A stretch of 64,000 nucleotides of DNA from a virus. Made by a program: the position numbers and the translations under genes. The notes under the pieces are model-generated. The model was not told where the DNA came from. It made no database searches and saw only the letters and a program-made list of their open reading frames with translations. Where the stretch lies: the IMG/VR virus record IMGVR_UViG_3300049033_000018, positions 93,141 to 157,140 of that record, one strand, 5' to 3'. Positions within the stretch are counted from its first letter, which is position 1; each line of letters opens with the position of its first letter. This document shows, piece by piece, positions 45,329 to 61,452 of the stretch.

Positions 45329-47293
45329 TTATTGAAATAACCAGTCTGGTAGGACCACTCCTCCTTGCTGAAACTTTTTTTCTAGAACAATGTTTGGAAA
45401 GTAGGCTCTTTGTTGTGGGGAGAAACTCTTATGTAATGGTTCTTCCTCTATGAGTTTTGCTCTATCGAATCCTAGTTCTTCAATTTGTTTATTAAGTTCA
45501 CTGAAATATTCTTCGAATTCATTTTCGTTTCTAAAGGTTGCTCTTACTCTTGATGGGTCTTTACTCATGCTGTTCATTCCTACAAATCCATCTTGATATG
45601 AGTTGAACTTATCTTGTTGGGATTGTTTTAGAACGTTTTTAAATGAGTCCCAGCTTAGGGAGCTGTTTTCTTTTATCTTTCCACCGATAGGAATAAAGTC
45701 GTCTAGCATCTTATAGGCTTTACCTGCTTTAATTGGGGACGAAGGCATGTCAGCATAGAAGTTATAGAAAGGGTCTTTATTTCCCTCTTCGAAGTATTTT
45801 TTAAGGGCTATTTCTTCATCATATGACATAATCTCTCCTTCAGGTGTAGTTTCTGTCATTGGGTTTCTGATTGAAGATTTGTTAGGGGTCCTGGATAGTT
45901 TCATTCCTCCTGGAAGGTCTGCTTCTATACTGGATGGTTTGGCTGCTGGTTTATATCCTTGGAGCCAGTCTTTTTCATATACCTTTACATTTTCATCATA
46001 AATATCCAGTGGTCTTTTAGATACTCTTACGTCTGTATTTTCAGGAGTATATTTACCAGTTCTTCCATTGACTTTAGGGGTGAATGCTTCTTCACCTTTT
46101 CTGGCTTCATACAAATACTCAGGTCTATTATTTTTATAATACAGGGAACCTTTATTATAGTAGGCATCATCACCAAAACTTTTAGCAATTGCTCCTGCTT
46201 CATCTATGGCTCCTACATTCTGTTGTCCTTTGATAAGACCCATTGTTTGTTCTAGCTCATTGAAGGTGTCAGCATCTACTTGTCTATAAAAATTATTTGA
46301 GTTAGTTCTAAAAGCAAATGGATTTACTTTATAAGCATTAGGAAGATTCTCTGCTCCATATCTATTGATGTCTGCTACAATATCGGCTGCTTTAGGAAGT
46401 TTACCAATGTTATCAACTAGCCCCAATCCTGCGTAGGTTAAAGGGTCAGTAATAATGTCTTCTGTAAGATTTGCATCATTCTTAGTACCTGATAAGGCAT
46501 CCTCAAAAGAATAGTCATCTCTGTATGCTGATTGTACCATCTTTGCTGGAACTGCTAGAGGTGCAAGTAAACCAAGTTGGTCCATGCTTCTTTCAGCAAA
46601 TCCATACTGACCTGTTTCAATCTGATATTGTTTTCTATTTTGTTCTACATTTGTTAGGCTGGTATCATTCTGGATACTTTGGATTAATCCCCTGTCTCCT
46701 CCTCCAAGCCATTCAGGAAGAATTTCATTTCCTACTGTATAGGCTCCTCTATTAAAGTCTGACCAGTAGCTTGGTTGAACTCCTGCGTTTCCTGATTCAA
46801 CAATGTATTCACTTAAACCTTCAGGCAATCCTTTTGTTAATCTATTTAAATAAGCCCCTCTAGCTTCTGGAGTATCTCCATCATTATTAGCTGGGTTCTG
46901 TTGTAAGAACTGTCCAATTAATTGTTGCTTGATTTGCTCATCATATTGTTGTTTGTAAGAAGGGTTCACTTCCCAGAATTTATCTGAGCTTTGTCCTAGA
47001 CCTCTTGCTATTGAGCCAGTCATCTCATCTTCAAAGTAAGGCTTCATGTAGTTTTCAAAACTACTTTGCTGAGTTAGTTGTTGGTATTGTTTGAGTAAAT
47101 CGTGGGCACCTTCCTGAGGATAATAATTACCTCTCTCATCCTCACCATATAGAATACCCTGAGCATAATAATCTTCATAGTCTGAAGAGTCTGTTGCCAA
47201 AGTTTCTCCTGTACTTAGTTGTACATATGTTTTACCGTCTTGTCCTTCGTATTGTTTTAAGACTCTGATTCCAGGTCCCTGAAATGTTGCCAT
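45329..47293 (-). CDS. large multidomain protein, likely virion cargo / injected protein
   Basis: 654 aa, Q/G-rich N-half, IITDPLTYAGLG, KDWLQGYK, C-terminal KKFQQGG motif. Confidence 0.6.
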   Translation of the reverse strand: MATFQGPGIRVLKQYEGQDGKTYVQLSTGETLATDSSDYEDYYAQGILYGEDERGNYYPQEGAHDLLKQYQQLTQQSSFENYMKPYFEDEMTGSIARGLGQSSDKFWEVNPSYKQQYDEQIKQQLIGQFLQQNPANNDGDTPEARGAYLNRLTKGLPEGLSEYIVESGNAGVQPSYWSDFNRGAYTVGNEILPEWLGGGDRGLIQSIQNDTSLTNVEQNRKQYQIETGQYGFAERSMDQLGLLAPLAVPAKMVQSAYRDDYSFEDALSGTKNDANLTEDIITDPLTYAGLGLVDNIGKLPKAADIVADINRYGAENLPNAYKVNPFAFRTNSNNFYRQVDADTFNELEQTMGLIKGQQNVGAIDEAGAIAKSFGDDAYYNKGSLYYKNNRPEYLYEARKGEEAFTPKVNGRTGKYTPENTDVRVSKRPLDIYDENVKVYEKDWLQGYKPAAKPSSIEADLPGGMKLSRTPNKSSIRNPMTETTPEGEIMSYDEEIALKKYFEEGNKDPFYNFYADMPSSPIKAGKAYKMLDDFIPIGGKIKENSSLSWDSFKNVLKQSQQDKFNSYQDGFVGMNSMSKDPSRVRATFRNENEFEEYFSELNKQIEELGFDRAKLIEEEPLHKSFSPQQRAYFPNIVLEKKFQQGGVVLPDWLFQ

Positions 47294-47349
47294 ATTTCGT
47301 ATTGTTTTCTATATTTAATCATATCATTCCTTACAGGAACTCTATGTCA

Positions 47350-47381
47350 CAAAGATATGAAATTTTTTTTAATTGTACAAA
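47350..47381 (-). promoter_or_regulatory. Bacteroidetes-type promoter
   Basis: TTTGTAC...CATATCTTTGTG. Confidence 0.6.
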
Positions 47382-47439
47382 TATATAATAAAAAATCCTA
47401 CCTAACAGGGGTTAAATAGGATAGGTTAAAACTCAGTGA

Positions 47440-47592
47440 TTACCAGTCAGAGTTTATTTCTTGTAATTGAGCTTTCATCTTAGCTCTAAATTTTTCTTTA
47501 TGGAATGGAGCCCATGTACCTTTGTGAGGTTTACATAGCTTGCAGCCACATCCTTTCTTTTGTTTACGTTTGTTATGTCTGTTTGGACCCAT
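47440..47592 (-). CDS. small basic Zn-binding peptide (50 aa, not in track)
   Basis: MGPNRHNKRKQKKGCGCKLCKPHK... Confidence 0.55.
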   Translation of the reverse strand: MGPNRHNKRKQKKGCGCKLCKPHKGTWAPFHKEKFRAKMKAQLQEINSDW

Positions 47593-48211
47593 GTATTAAA
47601 TCGTTGTGTAGACTCATTATTCGAAGCTCAGCTCTAGGAATCAAAATATTAATTGGAGCTTCTATTTTATGTTTGCTTTTTGAAAATTTAAATCCATCTT
47701 CAATATTTCCAAAGTCTGTATCTCCACTATCAATAGCATTACATTTACTGACTAACTTTTCTGTAGTCCAACCAAGGTCTTTCAAATAAGCAATGACTTT
47801 ATCTTTATTGATAAGCATTATTTCCATCTCTTGAATATCCTCAGATTTAGGATTTTTCTCAACTTTAGCTCTGTTGATAAAGGCAAGAAGATAATGAGTT
47901 GTGTTGAGTCTGTTTGATAAGAACCAACCATCATATCTGTATCCACTTTTCTTATCACTTGTAGCTCTAAGTTCAAAGGCAAATGTTTGTAAGTTTTTAC
48001 CTATATAATCAGTGGCACATTTTTCATCTACAAGCATATCGTCTCCTGTAGCTGATTGGAATATTACATCTATTCCTTGAAGTTGAAGAGCTTTACTTGT
48101 GACTCTTACAAAAGGTATTTTTCCAGTATAGTATTTATCTAGAAATTTCTCTATCTCTTTTGCTGTTTGTGAATCTGTTGCTCTGTTACTTTGATACAAT
48201 TCTTTTGGCAT
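47573..48211 (-). CDS. PD-(D/E)xK-like nuclease
   Basis: QLQGIDV...VDEKCA...FAFEL; real start MPKELYQ (track extension runs through tRNA genes). Confidence 0.7.
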   Translation of the reverse strand: MPKELYQSNRATDSQTAKEIEKFLDKYYTGKIPFVRVTSKALQLQGIDVIFQSATGDDMLVDEKCATDYIGKNLQTFAFELRATSDKKSGYRYDGWFLSNRLNTTHYLLAFINRAKVEKNPKSEDIQEMEIMLINKDKVIAYLKDLGWTTEKLVSKCNAIDSGDTDFGNIEDGFKFSKSKHKIEAPINILIPRAELRIMSLHNDLIHGSKQT

Positions 48212-48228
48212 ACTATAATTTTTGATTG

Positions 48229-48303
48229 TGGCTCCTACAGGATTTGAACCTGTGACCTTTTCATTATGAGTGAACTGCTCTAACCAGGCTGAGCTAAGAA
48301 GCC
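48229..48303 (-). tRNA. tRNA(CAU), Ile2- or Met-type
   Basis: Full cloverleaf, loop CTCATAA. Confidence 0.85.
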
Positions 48304-48307
48304 ATAG

Positions 48308-48379
48308 AACCCCCAAGTGGAATCGAACCACTATCAATAGTTTAGAAAACTATGGCTCTATCCGTTGAGCTATGAGGGC
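48308..48379 (-). tRNA. tRNA-Arg(UCU)
   Basis: ATAGT-TTTCTAA-ACTAT. Confidence 0.88.
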
Positions 48380-48487
48380 AAGTAAAATAACCTTCAAACT
48401 ACATCCTTATAACAGGAATACCCTTTCTGTATCAACACCCCCTAAAAAGGACTACTCAGATACTCTATTTTACTTCAGCTATTTTAG

Positions 48488-48559
48488 TCCCGATACCAAG
48501 AATCGAACTTGGATTTCAACCTTATGAGGATTTTGTAATAGCCATTATACTATATCGGG
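48488..48559 (-). tRNA. tRNA(CAU), atypical body
   Basis: CCCGATA/TATCGGG acceptor, loop CTCATAA, T arm CCAAG-TTCGATT-CTTGG. Confidence 0.75.
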
Positions 48560-48564
48560 AATTG

Positions 48565-55698: not shown

Positions 55699-55730
55699 GC
55701 AAATATACGAAAATATTTTTTATTATGCAA
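55699..55730 (-). promoter_or_regulatory. Bacteroidetes-type promoter
   Basis: TTGCATAAT...CGTATATTTGCA. Confidence 0.75.
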
Positions 55731-55754
55731 GAGTTTTAACAAATTTTAACATTG

Positions 55755-55827
55755 TAGACCTAGCTGGAGTCGAACCAACATTTTCTGAGTCAAAGTCAGA
55801 CGTACTGAACCATTGTACGATAGGTCT
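55755..55827 (-). tRNA. tRNA-Gln(UUG)
   Basis: TCTGA-CTTTGAC-TCAGA. Confidence 0.88.
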
Positions 55828-55830
55828 AAT

Positions 55831-55904
55831 TGGAGCCCAAGACAGGATTCGAACCTGTGTGCCTGATTTTGCAGACCAGTGTCTAACCACTCGACCACTT
55901 GGGC
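55831..55904 (-). tRNA. tRNA-Cys(GCA)
   Basis: Loop CTGCAAA, U73, CCA. Confidence 0.9.
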
Positions 55905-55918
55905 AATTTAAAAATTAG

Positions 55919-55991
55919 AGCCACCACTCAGATTCGAACTGAGAAAAGCTGGGTTACAACGCCAGTGCAATAGCCATTATGCGATGGTGGC
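55919..55991 (-). tRNA. tRNA-Thr(UGU), atypical anticodon arm
   Basis: GCCACCA/TGGTGGC, CTGGC-GTTGTAA-CCCAG. Confidence 0.7.
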
Positions 55992-55995
55992 AAAT

Positions 55996-56035
55996 AAAAA
56001 TCCCTTACATAGTCGGTTAGAAGGTATGTAAGGGA
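55996..56035 (-). terminator. terminator-like hairpin
   Basis: TCCCTTACATA...TATGTAAGGGA followed by TTTTT. Confidence 0.6.
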
Positions 56036-56177
56036 GCATTTAATTTACGGAAATAAATTGAATATCGTCTAAATAACTATAATGTCAGACAATACACTCC
56101 CTGTTGGTTGCCCCTGGCAGCCAATGGTTCTCTCAATATGTTGTGTAATTGTTATCATTATTTCTATTTATTATTTG

Positions 56178-56250
56178 TAGCGATGGGCTGGAATCGAACC
56201 AGCATGAGACAGCTTATGAGACTGTTGAGTTACCAATACTCTACCCCGCT
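56178..56250 (-). tRNA. tRNA-Met(CAU), initiator-like body
   Basis: AGCGGGGTAGAG 5' end, ACAGT-CTCATAA-GCTGT. Confidence 0.8.
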
Positions 56251-56262
56251 AATTTTACTTTT

Positions 56263-56295
56263 GCAAATATACAACAAAATTTTTACATATGCAAA
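56263..56295 (-). promoter_or_regulatory. Bacteroidetes-type promoter
   Basis: TTTGCATAT...TGTATATTTGCA with TTAAC pair. Confidence 0.8.
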
Positions 56296-56333
56296 TTTCT
56301 AAAAGAAATTATTAGTTAAAGTTTTGTTAAATA

Positions 56334-56564
56334 TTACCACTCTTCAAAAAACATCCAATATTCTTCTTCATTGAATAACGTAAGTTCCTGATTTATAGTT
56401 ATTTGTTTTTTATGTTTATGAAGTCTATTTCCTTCACAATATGGACATCCTCCATTATTTTCACAAAAATGTGAAACCTTAGTTGGTGTACCATCTTTTA
56501 CTTTTTTCAAATTTTTAAACCCCATCCATCTATTTTGAGATGGTCTCCTAAAAGTTCTACTCAT
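56334..56564 (-). CDS. small basic Cys-rich phage protein
   Basis: MSRTFRR...CENNGGCPYCEGNR; track extension overlaps tRNAs. Confidence 0.7.
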   Translation of the reverse strand: MSRTFRRPSQNRWMGFKNLKKVKDGTPTKVSHFCENNGGCPYCEGNRLHKHKKQITINQELTLFNEEEYWMFFEEW

Positions 56565-56578
56565 AATATATTTTATTG

Positions 56579-56661
56579 CGGAAAGCAGAGAGCACGATTC
56601 CCATACTTTAAGTACCATTTGTTTAGCAAACAACGCCTGTACCCTGACAGGTTTACTTTCC
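56579..56661 (-). tRNA. tRNA-Ser(GCU), atypical T loop
   Basis: Loop TTGCTAA, long variable arm, G73. Confidence 0.75.
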
Positions 56662-56663
56662 AT

Positions 56664-56752
56664 TGGCGGAGAGAATGGGACTCGAACCCATACGTGCGAA
56701 CACCAACTGTTTTCAAGACAGCGACCCATAGACCGACTTGGCTTACCTCTCC
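56664..56752 (-). tRNA. tRNA-Ser(UGA)
   Basis: Loop CTTGAAA, variable arm, GCCA end. Confidence 0.9.
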
Positions 56753-56804
56753 ATAAGCCCCAGAAATTGTGCTTGTAAACAGAGGCATCTGGGGAATTGA
56801 TATT

Positions 56805-57317
56805 TTATACTAATAAGAATTTCATCCAGGCTTCTGGAATATATTCTAAACTTTGTAACATCATTAAATAATGAGGTCTTTTTGGGTTTGGATGTTCTCT
56901 TCCCCATTCCTCAATCAGTAAATCACCTTTCTTAGAGTTACATGGTTTACATGCTGTAACACAATTTTCAAAGGTGTCTTTTCCACCTTTACTTTGTGGT
57001 AAAATATGGTCAATAGTCATTGCTCTTGCATCATCTTCGCCACAATATACACAGGTGTAATTATCTCTCTTAAATACGTTATCTCTTGAATAAGCAACTC
57101 TTGTAATATCTAAATTAATATACTTAGGAACTCTTATAATAGAAGGTCTAAGAATAACATTATTTGGATTTACAAGCTTAATTCTATCATTATGATTAGC
57201 TATAATTTCAGCATTTCCTTTACTAAAAATAACATAAGCTCTTACTGAATCAATTATTTGCCTAGGCATATAACTGGAGTCTACAACAAGACACTTTCTA
57301 AATTCTTTTTTCACCAT
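56805..57317 (-). CDS. HNH endonuclease
   Basis: RDNYTCVYCG, TIDHILPQSKGG, NCVTACKPCN. Confidence 0.92.
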   Translation of the reverse strand: MVKKEFRKCLVVDSSYMPRQIIDSVRAYVIFSKGNAEIIANHNDRIKLVNPNNVILRPSIIRVPKYINLDITRVAYSRDNVFKRDNYTCVYCGEDDARAMTIDHILPQSKGGKDTFENCVTACKPCNSKKGDLLIEEWGREHPNPKRPHYLMMLQSLEYIPEAWMKFLLV

Positions 57318-57339
57318 ACCTTTAACTTTTGATTATTAG

Positions 57340-57420
57340 TACCTATAGTAGGACTCGAACCTACACCCCTTTCGGGAACTGCTTCTAAGACAGCCGTGTC
57401 TACCATTCCACCATACAGGC
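57340..57420 (-). tRNA. tRNA-Leu(UAG)
   Basis: Loop CTTAGAA, variable arm. Confidence 0.9.
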
Positions 57421-57427
57421 ATTTTAG

Positions 57428-57507
57428 TGCTCCCACTGGGACTCGAACCCAGACCCCGAAGGACAAGATTTTAAGTCTTGCGTGTCTACCAATTCCACCA
57501 TGAGAGC
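57428..57507 (-). tRNA. tRNA-Leu(UAA)
   Basis: CAAGA-CTTAAAA-TCTTG. Confidence 0.9.
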
Positions 57508-57565
57508 ATTTTGTATGTTATTTCATACATTTTAGTCCATTTTGTATATTTTAACGAACATTTTG

Positions 57566-57638
57566 TGGAGCTGAAGGGAATTGAACCCTCCCAGATTGAT
57601 TGCAAATCAGTCTCGCCAGCCTTGGTACATGCAACCCC
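57566..57638 (-). tRNA. tRNA-Ala(UGC)
   Basis: G3:U70, loop TTTGCAA. Confidence 0.8.
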
Positions 57639-57640
57639 AA

Positions 57641-57916
57641 TTATTTATTATCTCTATTTCTGCCAATATGATAGCCATCACAGAAAACACATTTGTAAGT
57701 ACTAAAATGTACTCCTCTTTTCTTTCCCATACTTTCAGCCGACTTCAATGCTGACTCCTTTGTGTTATACATAACTTTAGGAAGCCCTGTATCTGCTCTT
57801 AAATGAGAATTCTTATGAAACATACCCCAAGCATTTCTTGTAATTAAAAAGTTCTTAATAAACCTCTTAATGGGTAACTGTTCCTTTAATGCTTTTACTA
57901 TATTCTTCAGTTTCAT
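57641..57916 (-). CDS. small Zn-ribbon protein
   Basis: YKCVFCDGYHIG. Confidence 0.7.
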   Translation of the reverse strand: MKLKNIVKALKEQLPIKRFIKNFLITRNAWGMFHKNSHLRADTGLPKVMYNTKESALKSAESMGKKRGVHFSTYKCVFCDGYHIGRNRDNK

Positions 57917-58124
57917 CTATTCCTTTTATAATTCTTACTATTTCTTTTGGAGAAACTACTGTACACCTTTCCATCACATCTTGAATTCTACCCTTAGGTA
58001 TATCGTAGTGATTTTTGTGGAACCAGCATAAGTTTATCCCTAAATTTTTAGCCATTAAATGCAAATTCTCAATTGAATAAGGTTTGCAGACTAAGTGTCT
58101 TTTATTGTCACAAATATATTCCAT
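57867..58124 (-). CDS. DUF4031-like protein
   Basis: HL...LH.MA..LG...WF...HYDI. Confidence 0.6.
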   Translation of the reverse strand: MEYICDNKRHLVCKPYSIENLHLMAKNLGINLCWFHKNHYDIPKGRIQDVMERCTVVSPKEIVRIIKGIDETEEYSKSIKGTVTH

Positions 58125-58126
58125 TG

Positions 58127-58197
58127 TACCTCGTGAAGGAATCGAACCTTCTCATTTAGTATGTAAAACTAACACGCTTCCGTTACATCAACGAGGC
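58127..58197 (-). tRNA. tRNA-Val(UAC)
   Basis: TTAGT-TTTACAT-ACTAA. Confidence 0.85.
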
Positions 58198-58244
58198 ATT
58201 ATAACTTTTAGCTTATTGTGTTGTACCACTATTAGCTTATTATG

Positions 58245-58442
58245 TTAAATATTATTACTCCAAGTTCTATAACTTATAGAGGGGTCAACATTACTTGTAG
58301 TTCCAACGAAAGTAACTTCCCAAAAATCTTCACCTAAGTCAAGCAATTGCATGAATTTTCCAACCTTAGCATGTTTCAATGGAATCCACCCTTGGGTTGT
58401 TTTTTCAGAATCTTTTTTCTTAAAGTTGCATTGTGCCCACAT
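58245..58442 (-). CDS. hypothetical protein
   Basis: MWAQCNFKK...WIP...AKVG; start moved out of tRNA-Lys. Confidence 0.6.
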   Translation of the reverse strand: MWAQCNFKKKDSEKTTQGWIPLKHAKVGKFMQLLDLGEDFWEVTFVGTTSNVDPSISYRTWSNNI

Positions 58443-58459
58443 AATATAAAATTTATTTG

Positions 58460-58531
58460 TCCCCCCGTCAGGAGTCGAACCTGACCTCACACTTTAAAAG
58501 AGTGTTGCCCACACCAGTCTGCTACGAAGGG
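58460..58531 (-). tRNA. tRNA-Lys(UUU)
   Basis: ACACT-CTTTTAA-AGTGT. Confidence 0.85.
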
Positions 58532-58561
58532 ATATACTTTTTAAGGAAGTACTAACCTTTG

Positions 58562-58634
58562 TCTAACCCGTCAGATTCGAACTGACACCCCCTTCATTCC
58601 AAGTGAAGACTTCTACCAATTGAAGTACGGCTAG
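58562..58634 (-). tRNA. tRNA-Pro(UGG)
   Basis: CTTCA-CTTGGAA-TGAAG. Confidence 0.88.
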
Positions 58635-58640
58635 TTATAG

Positions 58641-58721
58641 TGGGTCCTGGTGGACTCGAACCACTCCCCGAAGGACCTGTTTTACAGACAGGTTGACATT
58701 TCCAAATGCCTTACAGTACCC
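58641..58721 (-). tRNA. tRNA-Tyr(GUA)
   Basis: CCTGT-CTGTAAA-ACAGG, variable arm. Confidence 0.85.
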
Positions 58722-58790
58722 ATTAAAATCTAATTCTAAGCAAACTTCATTTAAGGTAATTTCTACGAATTAGTAACAGTCTCATAATTG

Positions 58791-58862
58791 TGGGTCCAGT
58801 AGGAATCGAACCTACGCATCCAGAGCTTCAATCTGGCACTCTACCAACTGAGTTATGGACCC
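58791..58862 (-). tRNA. tRNA-Phe(GAA)
   Basis: CCAGA-TTGAAGC-TCTGG. Confidence 0.9.
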
Positions 58863-58917
58863 ATTCTATGTACAGTTACGTTTCCACGAAGGAAAGAGGC
58901 TTTACTGTACCTCATTG

Positions 58918-58989
58918 CGGTGATGGAGAATTTCGAAATCTCGACATGCGACTTAACAGGTCGCTGCTCTGCCTCTGAGCTACATCACC
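58918..58989 (-). tRNA. tRNA-Asn(GUU)
   Basis: GCGAC-CTGTTAA-GTCGC, G73. Confidence 0.88.
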
Positions 58990-59119
58990 ATTAAAATTTG
59001 TAATATAATAGGACCAATCATCTTCCTTGTTGAATTACCTTTAAACCTATCTTTCCTTGAGGTCTCTCACCTCAACATTCTCTTTTGAAGAAATACTATG
59101 ATTTTGTATATTACATTTG

Positions 59120-59192
59120 CACAGGTGCAAGGATTCGAACCCTGACCAGTGGTTTTGGAGACCATTATGCTAACCATTAACACCACACCTGT
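59120..59192 (-). tRNA. tRNA-Trp(CCA)
   Basis: Loop CTCCAAA, G73. Confidence 0.9.
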
Positions 59193-59204
59193 ATTTATAT
59201 TCTG

Positions 59205-59280
59205 CCGTCCCAGAGGGTTTCGAACCCTCGTGTTTGAAGCGTGACAGGCTAAATCCCCAACCAACGGGGCTTATAGGACG
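59205..59280 (-). tRNA. tRNA-Asp(GUC)
   Basis: Loop CTGTCAC, G73. Confidence 0.8.
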
Positions 59281-59285
59281 AGTAT

Positions 59286-59325
59286 AAAATAAAAAATCCC
59301 TACTAATTTTACTAAGTAGGGATTT
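59286..59325 (-). terminator. attenuator terminator before first tRNA
   Basis: AAATCCCTACT-TAGTAAAATT-AGTAGGGATTT followed by T-run. Confidence 0.8.
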
Positions 59326-59358
59326 AAATAATCAAAAACTAAACTATGAAACCAAAAA

Positions 59359-59472
59359 TCATGTTTGTATTTTTATATTGAAACCTACCTTAGTAGTATT
59401 ATCCCATAACTTATCCGCTCCTAGCACGCTAGGATTAAAATAGAACGAATTAAAGTTATACGAATTTTTCAT
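59359..59472 (-). CDS. putative leader peptide (37 aa) of the tRNA operon
   Basis: MKNSYNFNSFYFNPSVLGADKLWDNTTKVGFNIKIQT*, between promoter and terminator. Confidence 0.55.
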   Translation of the reverse strand: MKNSYNFNSFYFNPSVLGADKLWDNTTKVGFNIKIQT

Positions 59473-59492
59473 TTTTATATTTTTATTACTTT

Positions 59493-59594
59493 GCAAAGAT
59501 ACGAAATTTATTTCATATATGCAAATATAATGAGTTAATTTTTTGTTAATTTTTTAGTTCTGCAAAGATAAGAATAAATTCTCTAAAATGCAAA
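59493..59594 (-). promoter_or_regulatory. tandem promoters of the tRNA operon
   Basis: Two TTTGCA...TATCTTTGCA sets (59493-59525, 59562-59594). Confidence 0.8.
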
Positions 59595-59610
59595 TATATA
59601 AAATTTTCTA

Positions 59611-59820
59611 TTAAATAAGATACTCTTCTTCAAAAAAGAAATCTTCTTCATCATCTTCATCATCAAAGTGTAAAAGAGAGTCATCTAGATTTGAATAAAT
59701 ACTTTCAAAAAGGAACTTGTCCTTTTCCCATATTCCTGTAGCTTCTGGAAGAACAGTTTTAAGTTCACCTGAATCCAGAAAAGTATCATACAAATCTCTT
59801 AGTTTAGTATTATTTTCCAT
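59611..59820 (-). CDS. small acidic protein
   Basis: GIWEKDK motif, acidic tail. Confidence 0.7.
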   Translation of the reverse strand: MENNTKLRDLYDTFLDSGELKTVLPEATGIWEKDKFLFESIYSNLDDSLLHFDDEDDEEDFFFEEEYLI

Positions 59821-60061
59821 ACCCTTTTCTTGTTAGGTCACTAACTATAAATTGATATTCATCTTCCATTTCCATAGAAGGCTCTTTATCTAATTTATAT
59901 TTTAGTAGTTTTTTATCCTTTCCATCCATTACTATTACATGTAAAAGAAATTTAGGGGGTGTTGTTGCACTTTTGACATGCATCACACTTGAAACCCCCT
60001 TTATTTTTCTTATAACATTTAACCAATGGTTATGGAAAGCTCTTTCAATTAAGCTTTTCAT
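59810..60061 (-). CDS. hypothetical protein
   Basis: Packed ORF. Confidence 0.6.
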   Translation of the reverse strand: MKSLIERAFHNHWLNVIRKIKGVSSVMHVKSATTPPKFLLHVIVMDGKDKKLLKYKLDKEPSMEMEDEYQFIVSDLTRKGYGK

Positions 60062-60068
60062 AATCTAA

Positions 60069-60866
60069 TTAGAATGGACTATCATTGTCTTCTTCCAAAG
60101 CGTTAGCTGCAAATGGATTTTCTTCAGGTTTTTTGGTCTCTACTACTGGTGTAGTAGTTTGAGGAGTCGTTTGTGCTGTAGCAGCTTCTCCTTCAGTTTC
60201 CCATTCCTTATAAAAATCAGAAGTGTAGACATTACCTTCTTTAAAATCAGCATATCTCTTTAACTCGTAAAGAAGTACTTTTGATAAGAAAGCATCTTGG
60301 TCCTTGTAATTTAGTGTTTTTTTACCAGCTTCAATTGGGTCTTCCTCAAGAAGAAACATTGGTACATTTCCTTTTTCACCGAATTTAAGTGAGAATTTAA
60401 TTGGAGTGTCTTTTTCTTGACCTTCCTCAGCTTTGTATCTGAAGTAAAGAACTTTATCAACATATCCTCTTTGATTTTTCTCTCTGTTAGAAGAGATAAT
60501 AATTGGTTTAGAATAATCTAAACTAGGAAGAATTGCAATAAGTTTTTTAACTTCATCAGTTAAACCATTCTTACTATTTCTTAATGGTAGTTGTACTACA
60601 TCAACTGCATTCTCTCTGTCATCAGATTGAATAGAAATTTCAACGTACTTTACTTTTCCTGAATCAAAATTCTTTTCATTAATACCTAAGAAAATTACTT
60701 TTCCGTAATCAGTACTTCTAAATGCTTTTTGATATGTAACCTTACCATCATTTAAAGGAACTTCAACGTATCCTTCTTTAGGGTCTTTTGAACCAATATA
60801 AAGTTCTCCTTTTGAATTTAATCTTAAAAATGTAAATTCTTTACCTGTTCCAAATTCTTTTGCCAT
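60069..60866 (-). CDS. putative single-stranded DNA-binding protein
   Basis: Beta-rich body, low-complexity linker, acidic tail EEDNDSPF; near recA. Confidence 0.6.
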   Translation of the reverse strand: MAKEFGTGKEFTFLRLNSKGELYIGSKDPKEGYVEVPLNDGKVTYQKAFRSTDYGKVIFLGINEKNFDSGKVKYVEISIQSDDRENAVDVVQLPLRNSKNGLTDEVKKLIAILPSLDYSKPIIISSNREKNQRGYVDKVLYFRYKAEEGQEKDTPIKFSLKFGEKGNVPMFLLEEDPIEAGKKTLNYKDQDAFLSKVLLYELKRYADFKEGNVYTSDFYKEWETEGEAATAQTTPQTTTPVVETKKPEENPFAANALEEDNDSPF

Positions 60867-60905
60867 GTCTTAAACTTTTTTGTTTTATTATTAATTTATT
60901 ACTTT

Positions 60906-60938
60906 GCAAATATACAACAATTTTTTGAATTATGCAAA
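60906..60938 (-). promoter_or_regulatory. Bacteroidetes-type promoter
   Basis: TTTGCATAAT...TGTATATTTGCA. Confidence 0.8.
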
Positions 60939-60954
60939 TATATAAAAGTTAATT

Positions 60955-61452
60955 TTATGTTAAAAATTTTTTAATTTCTTCTGTTGTTAAAAATACATCT
61001 TTATCATTTTCATAAGCCAACATTTCTTCAGCAGTTAATATATGAGGTAATTTTTCCTCAACTAACTCAACTATAGGGTATTTAACCTTATAAATTAATT
61101 TTTCTTCTGAGAAATCAAGTTTTATATGTCCTTTAGTAGGTCTAATAGAGACCCTCTTTGATGTAGTATGAACCATTCCTACTGTTCCAGGAATGATGTG
61201 CTTAGAGCAGTCTACTGCAACGAAAAGGTCAAAGGCAGCACTAAAAATATTACCACAAGCTACTAATGTAAATTTATCTTTGTCATAAGATTCAAATATT
61301 TCTTTCATCATTTCAGCTATGATACATTTTCCACCAGGAGAATCCAACCAAACTTCCATTTTCATTCCTTCAGGAAGTTCATTCTGAAAAGTAAGGAAAA
61401 GGTCAAACATTTCCTCATCTATGTCACTATTCCAATAAAATCTCTTCACCAT
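60955..61452 (-). CDS. ClpP-like protease
   Basis: WLDSPGG, FSAAF (catalytic Ser), MVH, D.FLT.EE. Confidence 0.75.
   Translation of the reverse strand: MVKRFYWNSDIDEEMFDLFLTFQNELPEGMKMEVWLDSPGGKCIIAEMMKEIFESYDKDKFTLVACGNIFSAAFDLFVAVDCSKHIIPGTVGMVHTTSKRVSIRPTKGHIKLDFSEEKLIYKVKYPIVELVEEKLPHILTAEEMLAYENDKDVFLTTEEIKKFLT

Follow-up and report, generated by a model that had tools for sequence, protein, structure and literature searches.

Leader-peptide attenuators are represented in enterobacteria by the ilvGMEDA leader (Ile/Val/Leu), the thr leader (Thr/Ile) and trpL, hisL, pheL and leuL. A component of translation itself is governed by the pheST attenuator of E. coli with its pheM leader: the target is phenylalanyl-tRNA synthetase, and one amino acid is sensed. 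T-box riboswitches bind uncharged transfer RNA (tRNA) directly and need no open reading frame (ORF). Here we describe a candidate leader-peptide attenuator, termed leader A, in front of the tRNA array of a phage. It is located at 59286–59594 of a stretch of 64,000 nucleotides (nt), referred to as the window, that corresponds to positions 93,141 to 157,140 of the IMG/VR virus record IMGVR_UViG_3300049033_000018 and forms the final 64 kilobases (kb) of this 157-kb record. All genes around leader A are on the minus strand.

We hold it to be reasonably probable that this element attenuates transcription by a multivalent, ribosome-mediated mechanism and thereby gates the first block of tRNA genes, with a specificity for that block and not for tRNA starvation in general. 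The closest systems in mechanism are the multivalent ilvGMEDA and thr leaders. Like all the enterobacterial examples, the locus combines a promoter, a short leader ORF rich in the codons to be sensed and a terminator before the first structural gene, and its predicted antiterminator would likewise use the 5′ arm of the terminator and be weaker than it. The enterobacterial leaders control biosynthetic enzymes and contain runs of one to three amino acids, whereas tRNAs would be controlled here and the phage leader samples 11–12 amino acids, once or a few times each. The trp leader further differs by its 1:2 helix; the phage leader, which belongs to a Bacteroidota phage system, has no sequestering helix and no Shine-Dalgarno sequence. 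Common to pheST would be the leader attenuation of a translation component in answer to the supply of charged tRNA, but the target there is a synthetase and not tRNA genes. With T-boxes the locus would share that tRNA status sets read-through by means of competing folds, with the difference that the signal here would be read by the ribosome; no T-box match was obtained in Rfam 15 at an expectation value (E) ≤ 1 over 47000–61000.

Phage tRNAs are known to rescue infection from tRNA-destroying defences such as retron effectors and PARIS (PMC11555353, PMC11464382). How phages control their own tRNA genes is almost unstudied, and a full-text literature search, with many subscription journals outside its reach, returned no paper describing a tRNA operon under attenuation, in phages or elsewhere. 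The trn operon of Anabaena sp. PCC 7120, a 26-tRNA array, is induced by translational stress and controlled at the promoter by the repressor TrcR, which acts on direct repeats; no leader, attenuator or terminator is mentioned (PMC8421152, PMC10272220). Like the phage array as proposed here, it is an accessory set of tRNA genes that responds to impaired translation by being switched on, and it differs in the use of a promoter repressor.

Results and Discussion

The original prediction for this region had named tandem promoters, a 37-codon ORF, a strong terminator and then the first tRNA, and all of these elements were located on the minus strand within 59286–59594. Promoter P1 (59594–59563; −33 TTTG, −7 TAtcTTTG) and promoter P2 (59525–59494) match the Bacteroidota sigma-A pattern, searched as TTTG-N17-22-TAnnTTTG. 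This pattern occurs 18 times in the window against 5.1 expected matches, a number reached by none of 100 shuffles, and both promoters are members of a phage-wide family TTTGCATAT...TATCTTTG. Transcription from P2 likely starts near 59488, about 16–18 nt upstream of the ATG. As is usual in Bacteroidota, no Shine-Dalgarno sequence precedes this ATG. Leader ORF A (59359–59472) starts at 59472, comprises 37 codons and ends with a TGA stop at 59361–59359. It is followed by terminator A (59286–59325), in which AAATCCCTACT (59325–59315), a 10-nt loop and AGTAGGGATTT (59304–59294) form a stem of 11 base pairs (bp) with −13.5 kcal/mol, continued by TTTATTTT.

The first gene past terminator A is tRNA-Asp(GTC) at 59204–59280, and the rest of the block, termed block A, extends over 56664–59192 with Trp, Asn, Phe, Tyr, Pro, Lys, Val, an Ala-like tRNA, Leu(TAA), Leu(TAG) and Ser(TGA) as well as two small ORFs. 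In total, 23 tRNA genes were called by ARAGORN between 48228 and 59280, a count that excludes the Ala-like tRNA at 57638–57563. The next promoter motif downstream of P2 lies at 56295, and the pattern scan gave none between 59494 and 56295. Since they have no promoter motif of their own, the 11 called tRNAs of block A and the Ala-like tRNA must be transcribed through the hairpin.

The composition of the leader mirrors the tRNAs behind it. In the sampling region, formed by codons 2–25 (59398–59469), the residues are cognate to block-A tRNAs: 22 of 24 belong to the ten amino acids that the called tRNAs of this block carry, and 23 of 24 if Ala is included. A level of 22/24 is reached by only 0.035% of the 24-residue windows of the proteome. 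At the level of codons, leader A offers a cognate codon for all 11 ARAGORN-called tRNAs of the block, both Leu isoacceptors (CTA, TTA) included. Among the members of the leader A peptide family described below, the 11-residue N-terminal segment is reshuffled in order, with 265 of 281 residues in the block-A set. This segment contains one Ile and neither Glu nor Gly, each of which makes up 6–7% of the proteome. Composition that is kept without order is what would be predicted of a codon-sampling region, not of a folded peptide. A demand for codons of A and T only in proximity to the start codon was considered as the cause of this composition and rejected, as Ile, with two such codons, is nearly absent and Ser, with none, amounts to 17%.

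During the promoter search a second cassette was found that was absent from the original prediction and is unrelated to leader A in sequence. Promoter B (56264–56295, minus strand, pattern match) is followed by tRNA-Met at 56251–56180 and by leader ORF B (56069–56158, minus strand), which has 29 codons and a TAG stop at 56069–56071. Terminator B (55992–56035, minus strand) consists of TCCCTTACAT, a 15-nt loop, ATGTAAGGGA and a T-run, with a 10-bp stem. The first gene past it is tRNA-Thr (55918–55991, minus strand), and Cys, Gln, Ile, Gly, His, Glu, suppressor (CTA), Met, Arg and Met follow. The overall layout on the minus strand is promoter, mini-ORF, hairpin with T-run and, 5–15 nt further on, a tRNA.

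Residues 2–17 of leader B read I T I T Q H I E R T I G C Q G Q. All 16 are in the set of the remaining tRNAs (Thr, Cys, Gln, Ile, Gly, His, Glu, Arg, Met), and they make use of only Thr, Cys, Gln, Ile, Gly, His, Glu and Arg. No run of 16 residues in this set occurs among 42,451 positions of the proteome. If the whole ORFs are compared, with no choice of segment, the leader-by-set table (27 and 8; 7 and 21) gives a Fisher p of 4.6e-5. In the relatives G001 and G002 the length of leader B and its TAG stop are kept, and the only changes are swaps within the set (I2T, I4T, T5R, R10I); there the promoter abuts the leader B ORF without an intervening tRNA-Met. The sensor of general tRNA starvation that had been proposed does not agree with these compositions, as leader A covers its own block and leader B the rest.

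A search for the same layout in front of the tRNA clusters of related phages, suggested in the original prediction, yielded four other DNA loci. L001 and L002 are IMG/VR relatives with about 70% identity in a neighbouring protein, and L036 and L037 are more distant metagenome contigs. The latter two came from a single metagenome scan, and IMG/VR, searched by protein neighbour, DNA word and three peptide alignments, contributed only the two close relatives. The order of promoter(s), ORF, hairpin with T-run and tRNA-Asp is kept, with an HNH ORF before tRNA-Asp in L037; the L036 contig begins 11 nt before the ATG, and its promoter region is beyond its reach. The ORFs have 38, 38, 41 and 33 codons in L001, L002, L036 and L037, respectively, and the indels are in frame. 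Within the core CCT AGC GTG CTA GGA GCG, L001/L002 show five changes and L037 shows four, each of them synonymous and in the third position.

This pattern bears on a reading in which the ORF is incidental and the region is a structured non-coding element, either a small RNA or a hairpin that stabilises the 3′ end after the RNase P cut at tRNA-Asp. It would account for the leader folding far better than shuffled sequences (z = −4.2) and for a stable hairpin that ends 13 nt before the RNase P site. It is opposed by the changes confined to third positions, by the in-frame indels and by a family that is recovered at the protein level, and Rfam gave no match beyond a chance match to the terminator. 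We regard this reading as very improbable.

For the competing folds, each leader was cut before the 3′ arm of the terminator exists, and the resulting nascent RNA was folded with ViennaRNA. In the window, TACTAAG-G-TAGG-TTT (59395–59381) is predicted to pair with AAA-tc-CCTACTTAGTA (59325–59310), which bears out the pairing of an ORF-internal strand with the 5′ side of the terminator in the original prediction. The 5′ strand of this antiterminator, TACTAAGGTAGGTTT (59381–59395, minus strand), covers codons 26–31 including the invariant Val-Gly GTAGG, and its 3′ strand, AAATCCCTACTTAGTA (59310–59325, minus strand), consists of the terminator 5′ arm and the start of the loop. With the outer A-U pairs, which extend to 59377 and 59329, the antiterminator of the window has 17 bp in total.

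In all five A leaders the core of the terminator 5′ arm is paired upstream (P = 0.89–1.0; 0.92 in the window), and the partner in all five is the homologous pair of Val-Gly codons (GTAGG). The flanking pairs vary by lineage: one pair, next to the core, covaries, with A-U in L001, L002 and L037, G-C in L036 and G-U in the window. The C of this L036 antiterminator pair is mismatched within the terminator of L036 itself. Lack of conservation of the ORF and of the alternative pairing would, by the terms of the original prediction, have refuted it; the ORF is conserved, and so is the pairing in the predicted folds. As MAFFT misaligned the GTAGG strand of L036 and L037, the antiterminator was assessed by folding each sequence separately, and with three independent lineages covariation cannot reach significance. 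A different partner, TGGGAT in the Trp-Asp codons for ATCCC, gives the best duplex in the window, L001 and L002; it was rejected as it is lost in L037.

The antiterminator domains of the A leaders have −2.8 to −8.2 kcal/mol, compared to −9.9 to −14.2 kcal/mol for the terminators, and the terminator is kept in all homologs. In cassette B the respective values are −2.1 to −7.3 and −13.9 to −14.5 kcal/mol. The 5′ arm of terminator B (CTCCCT) can pair with AGGGAG at 56102–56097 (codons 19–21). This alternative pairing around the Thr-Gly codons appears as GGGAG/CTCCC in the window and as GGGATTA/TAATCCC in G001 and is weak in G002, so that an antiterminator is predicted in two of the three B leaders. 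For every leader of both cassettes the terminator is the predicted fold of the complete transcript. The layout agrees with ribosome-mediated attenuation, and an antiterminator calculated to be weaker than its terminator is the classical kinetic arrangement.

The effect of a ribosome was simulated by in silico masking in the window. With the P site on codons 1–24 the antiterminator is kept, and on codons 25–34 its probability falls to 0.02–0.32. The boundary coincides with the end of the sampling region. A pyrBI-type mechanism, in which the ribosome covers the terminator, was rejected on account of the distance between stop codon and hairpin, which is 33–64 nt across the leaders and 33 nt in the window.

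Based on these features we propose the following sequence of events. Host RNA polymerase would start at the tandem promoters and transcribe the 37-codon leader, whose codons 2–25 would sample the amino acids, and mostly also the codons, of the tRNAs just downstream. A ribosome that is slow or stalled in this region would leave TACTAAGGTAGGTTT free to pair with the nascent 5′ arm of the terminator; the terminator hairpin would not form, and the polymerase would continue into tRNA-Asp and the following tRNAs. With fast decoding the ribosome would be on or past codons 25–34 when the terminator is made. The antiterminator would then be melted, hairpin and U-run would form, and transcription would stop. 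Cassette B may act likewise for the rest of the array. In effect, tRNA synthesis would be under feedback control by the decoding quality of the matching codons, and the phage would probably make the tRNAs of a block mainly when ribosomes decode their cognate codons slowly. That termination is regulated, in which direction the switch works and the link to tRNA-cleaving host defences are what we infer from the sequence. Of the attenuation originally proposed, the architecture stood, and the general sensor did not.

At the protein level the leader belongs to a family of its own. A search of 5.8 billion proteins with a 45-residue TTG-extended frame as query gave five homologs of 37–38 residues, and a profile search of 1.84 billion representatives gave 25 matches at E ≤ 0.001, of which 21 are peptides of 38–78 residues. 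The family pattern consists of MK, 11 variable residues, NPSxLGAD(K/R)LW and a variable tail, with DYDGI at the end of most members. Pfam and PHROGs contain no match for the leader peptides. In GenBank phages (INPHARED), blastn of the region found only similarity of tRNA-Trp, and tblastn with the family peptide found nothing. Most of 25 exact 17-mer matches in IMG/VR are probably due to chance. The same probably holds for the only match from a genome scan, in Nostoc, which was rejected as a homolog: it is intergenic and has no start codon, no KLW and no nearby tRNA. Translation of this stretch (L042, 1501–1575, of a Nostoc mirabile contig) gives KSFSLNPSVLGADR, and its RNA can fold into the same small hairpin, CCCAA/TTGGG. 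One peptide of the profile search, P0014 (75 residues), contains after ...GADKLY a fused CxxC...HNRD segment that resembles a TnpB/IS605-type C-terminus, which suggests a mobile element inserted into the leader ORF.

The strict core raises the question of whether the mini-ORF could be an independent micropeptide gene that acts in trans, with the tRNAs supplied by constant leakage of the terminator and nothing being sensed. Across about 25 clusters that share less than 50% identity, the core NPSVLGADKLW is kept by position. In L001, L002 and L037 the core substitutions are synonymous, and gene callers predicted ORFs of this family as proteins. Furthermore, the hairpin with T-run is, judged by its design, an ordinary terminator of this phage: there are about 20 such sites on the coding strand of the 64 kb, and several have the design of terminator A, AAATCCCT...AGGGATTTT. 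Terminator B shares this design, with stem changes on both sides in relatives. We nevertheless consider a micropeptide unlikely. Besides the missing Pfam and PHROG matches, AlphaFold2 with 22 sequences gave no confident fold for the leader A peptide (predicted local distance difference test, pLDDT, 55). Such a gene would also leave unexplained the confinement of the reshuffled N-terminal 11 residues to block amino acids, the non-homologous complementary ORF B before the second block, and the constant partner of the terminator 5′ arm inside the ORF. The two functions are compatible, as a leader peptide can have a second role.

The same motifs would suit an arrest peptide of the TnaC, SecM or ErmCL type, in which a stall caused by a small molecule, a factor or the state of the exit tunnel, and not tRNA supply, sets read-through. 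The central motif is strict at the amino-acid level with synonymous variation, the C-terminal motif adjoins the stop in most members, and both leaders end with rare stops: among 149 stop codons TAA accounts for 129 and TGA (leader A) and TAG (leader B) for 10 each, i.e. 6.7%. An arrest motif does not predict the mirrored composition, and leader B has the same layout without a similar motif and changes by swaps within its set. A stall at the end of the core (codons ~23–25) would fall on the masking boundary, where the direction of its effect is ambiguous. We therefore judge arrest to be quite unlikely.

The original prediction had pointed to codons uncommon in this genome. Their rarity was confirmed against the phage's own usage, with shares in their codon families of 2% for TCG (present twice in leader A), 1% for GCG, 4% for AGC and 7% for GTG, next to 11% for CTA. 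A function as sensor codons was not supported, as TCG, AGC, GTG and GCG are replaced by TCT, AGT, GTA and GCA in L001/L002. In the window these codons contribute to the G-C pairs of a hairpin inside the ORF, and a structural role is more likely for them than one as stall sites. This long hairpin (59402–59463, minus strand; codons 4–24) holds most of the rare G/C-rich codons, is part of the minimum free energy fold of all five homologs and is possibly a pause hairpin. Its apical stem, TCCTAG-CGTG-CTAGGA at 59434–59419, corresponds to the TCCTAGC/GCTAGGA hairpin noted originally, which is real and has 6 bp instead of 7. It is 93% paired with two both-side changes, a result equalled by 94 of 500 shuffles and not significant with five sequences. 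A small hairpin at 59341–59366 (minus strand), whose 5′ strand is formed by the last codons and the TGA, is nested in the antiterminator domain.

Several observations weigh against attenuation as proposed here. Regarding the composition, Gly18 has no tRNA in block A, the blocks of L036 and L037 contain a tRNA-Arg(ACG) without an Arg codon in the leader, and leader B samples Glu and Arg, the tRNAs of which are placed past a further terminator at about 52804. Both the core NPSVLGADKLW and, in most members, the C-terminal DYDGI are fixed by position, which is not required of a pure codon counter. This core could be frozen by one-each encoding of Pro, Val, Leu, Gly, Ala, Asp, Lys and Trp together with formation of the long hairpin. 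The number of independent DNA lineages is only three for leader A and two for leader B. Regarding the pairing, shuffled upstream sequence matched the paired probability in 0–12% of trials for seven of the eight leaders, the exception being B in G002 with 77%, and the best-duplex energies compared to shuffles gave p = 0.03–0.24 per sequence.

Two further points concern the course of translation. With a ribosome at the stop codon the antiterminator persists (P = 0.80 in the window, 0.99 in L036). As masking by such a ribosome is not reliable, termination would need tight timing between ribosome and polymerase, and coupling of the two is not established for Bacteroidota. Also, there is no equivalent of the trp-type 1:2 helix: the antiterminator is not sequestered in untranslated RNA, since the long ORF hairpin excludes this strand, and only a 4-bp local stem (CTAC/GTAG) overlaps with it. 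Without a sequestering helix, untranslated RNA should read through by default.

An extension of block-specific attenuation, which we consider possible and put forward tentatively, is a two-channel tRNA homeostat. Two unrelated leaders would divide the genetic code in the way the array is divided, each would free its own block on slow decoding, and the rare TAG of leader B would be read by the suppressor tRNA of the array. A suppressor tRNA with the anticodon CTA is found in the array at 49900–49971, and the TAG stop of leader B may be read by it. Read-through of this TAG to a nearby TAA is possible in the window and G001 and was discarded, as it is not possible in G002.

Some further features of the region were noted. 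Upstream of P2, a direct repeat ATTAAC-N6-TTAAC can be read from the sequence at 59534–59550 (minus strand). Copies of TTAAC-N6-7-TTAAC occur on the minus strand at 59534–59550 (P2), 56305–56325 (promoter B), 20565 and 11362, the last two just upstream of two further terminator hairpins of the design AAATCC(C)T...AGGGATTTT. The repeat accompanies promoters of this class and is possibly an UP element, a site for a regulator or a component of a module at terminator-promoter junctions.

Two tRNAs of block A are unusual. tRNA-Asp has an odd D arm with a CCCC/GGGG stem and barely passes Rfam (29.6 bits), and ARAGORN does not call the corresponding genes of L001 and L002, which are homologs of it. 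The Ala(TGC)-like tRNA (57563–57638, minus strand), which ARAGORN missed, has G3:U70 and an enlarged D arm, shows a weak transfer-messenger-RNA-like match in Rfam and is homologous to a called tRNA-Ala of L002 (7300–7373). The interval from tRNA-Val to the Ala-like tRNA also contains, at 57867–58124 on the minus strand, a gene for a DUF4031 protein (E = 1.9e-9).

HNH endonuclease ORFs are present within the tRNA arrays of L036 and L037. In L036 (372–812) a 146-residue HNH-like ORF (EFHHL...CSNCHRKVH) is inserted between tRNA-Asp and tRNA-Trp. In L037 a 5′ fragment of tRNA-Asp (1504–1533) follows the terminator, and a 191-residue HNH-like ORF and then a normal tRNA-Asp come after it. This arrangement looks like a homing-endonuclease insertion.

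Conclusion

If leader A and its counterpart act as proposed, attenuation would reach beyond amino-acid and synthetase operons, and phages would gain a direct, ribosome-read measure of the tRNA pool. For annotation, the signature is a terminator with tRNAs behind it and, in front, a mini-ORF that mirrors them in composition, and this mirror could predict which tRNAs a phage treats as one unit. Should the tentative two-channel arrangement be true as well, the phage would detect the depletion or cleavage of particular host tRNAs by anticodon nucleases and replace just those.

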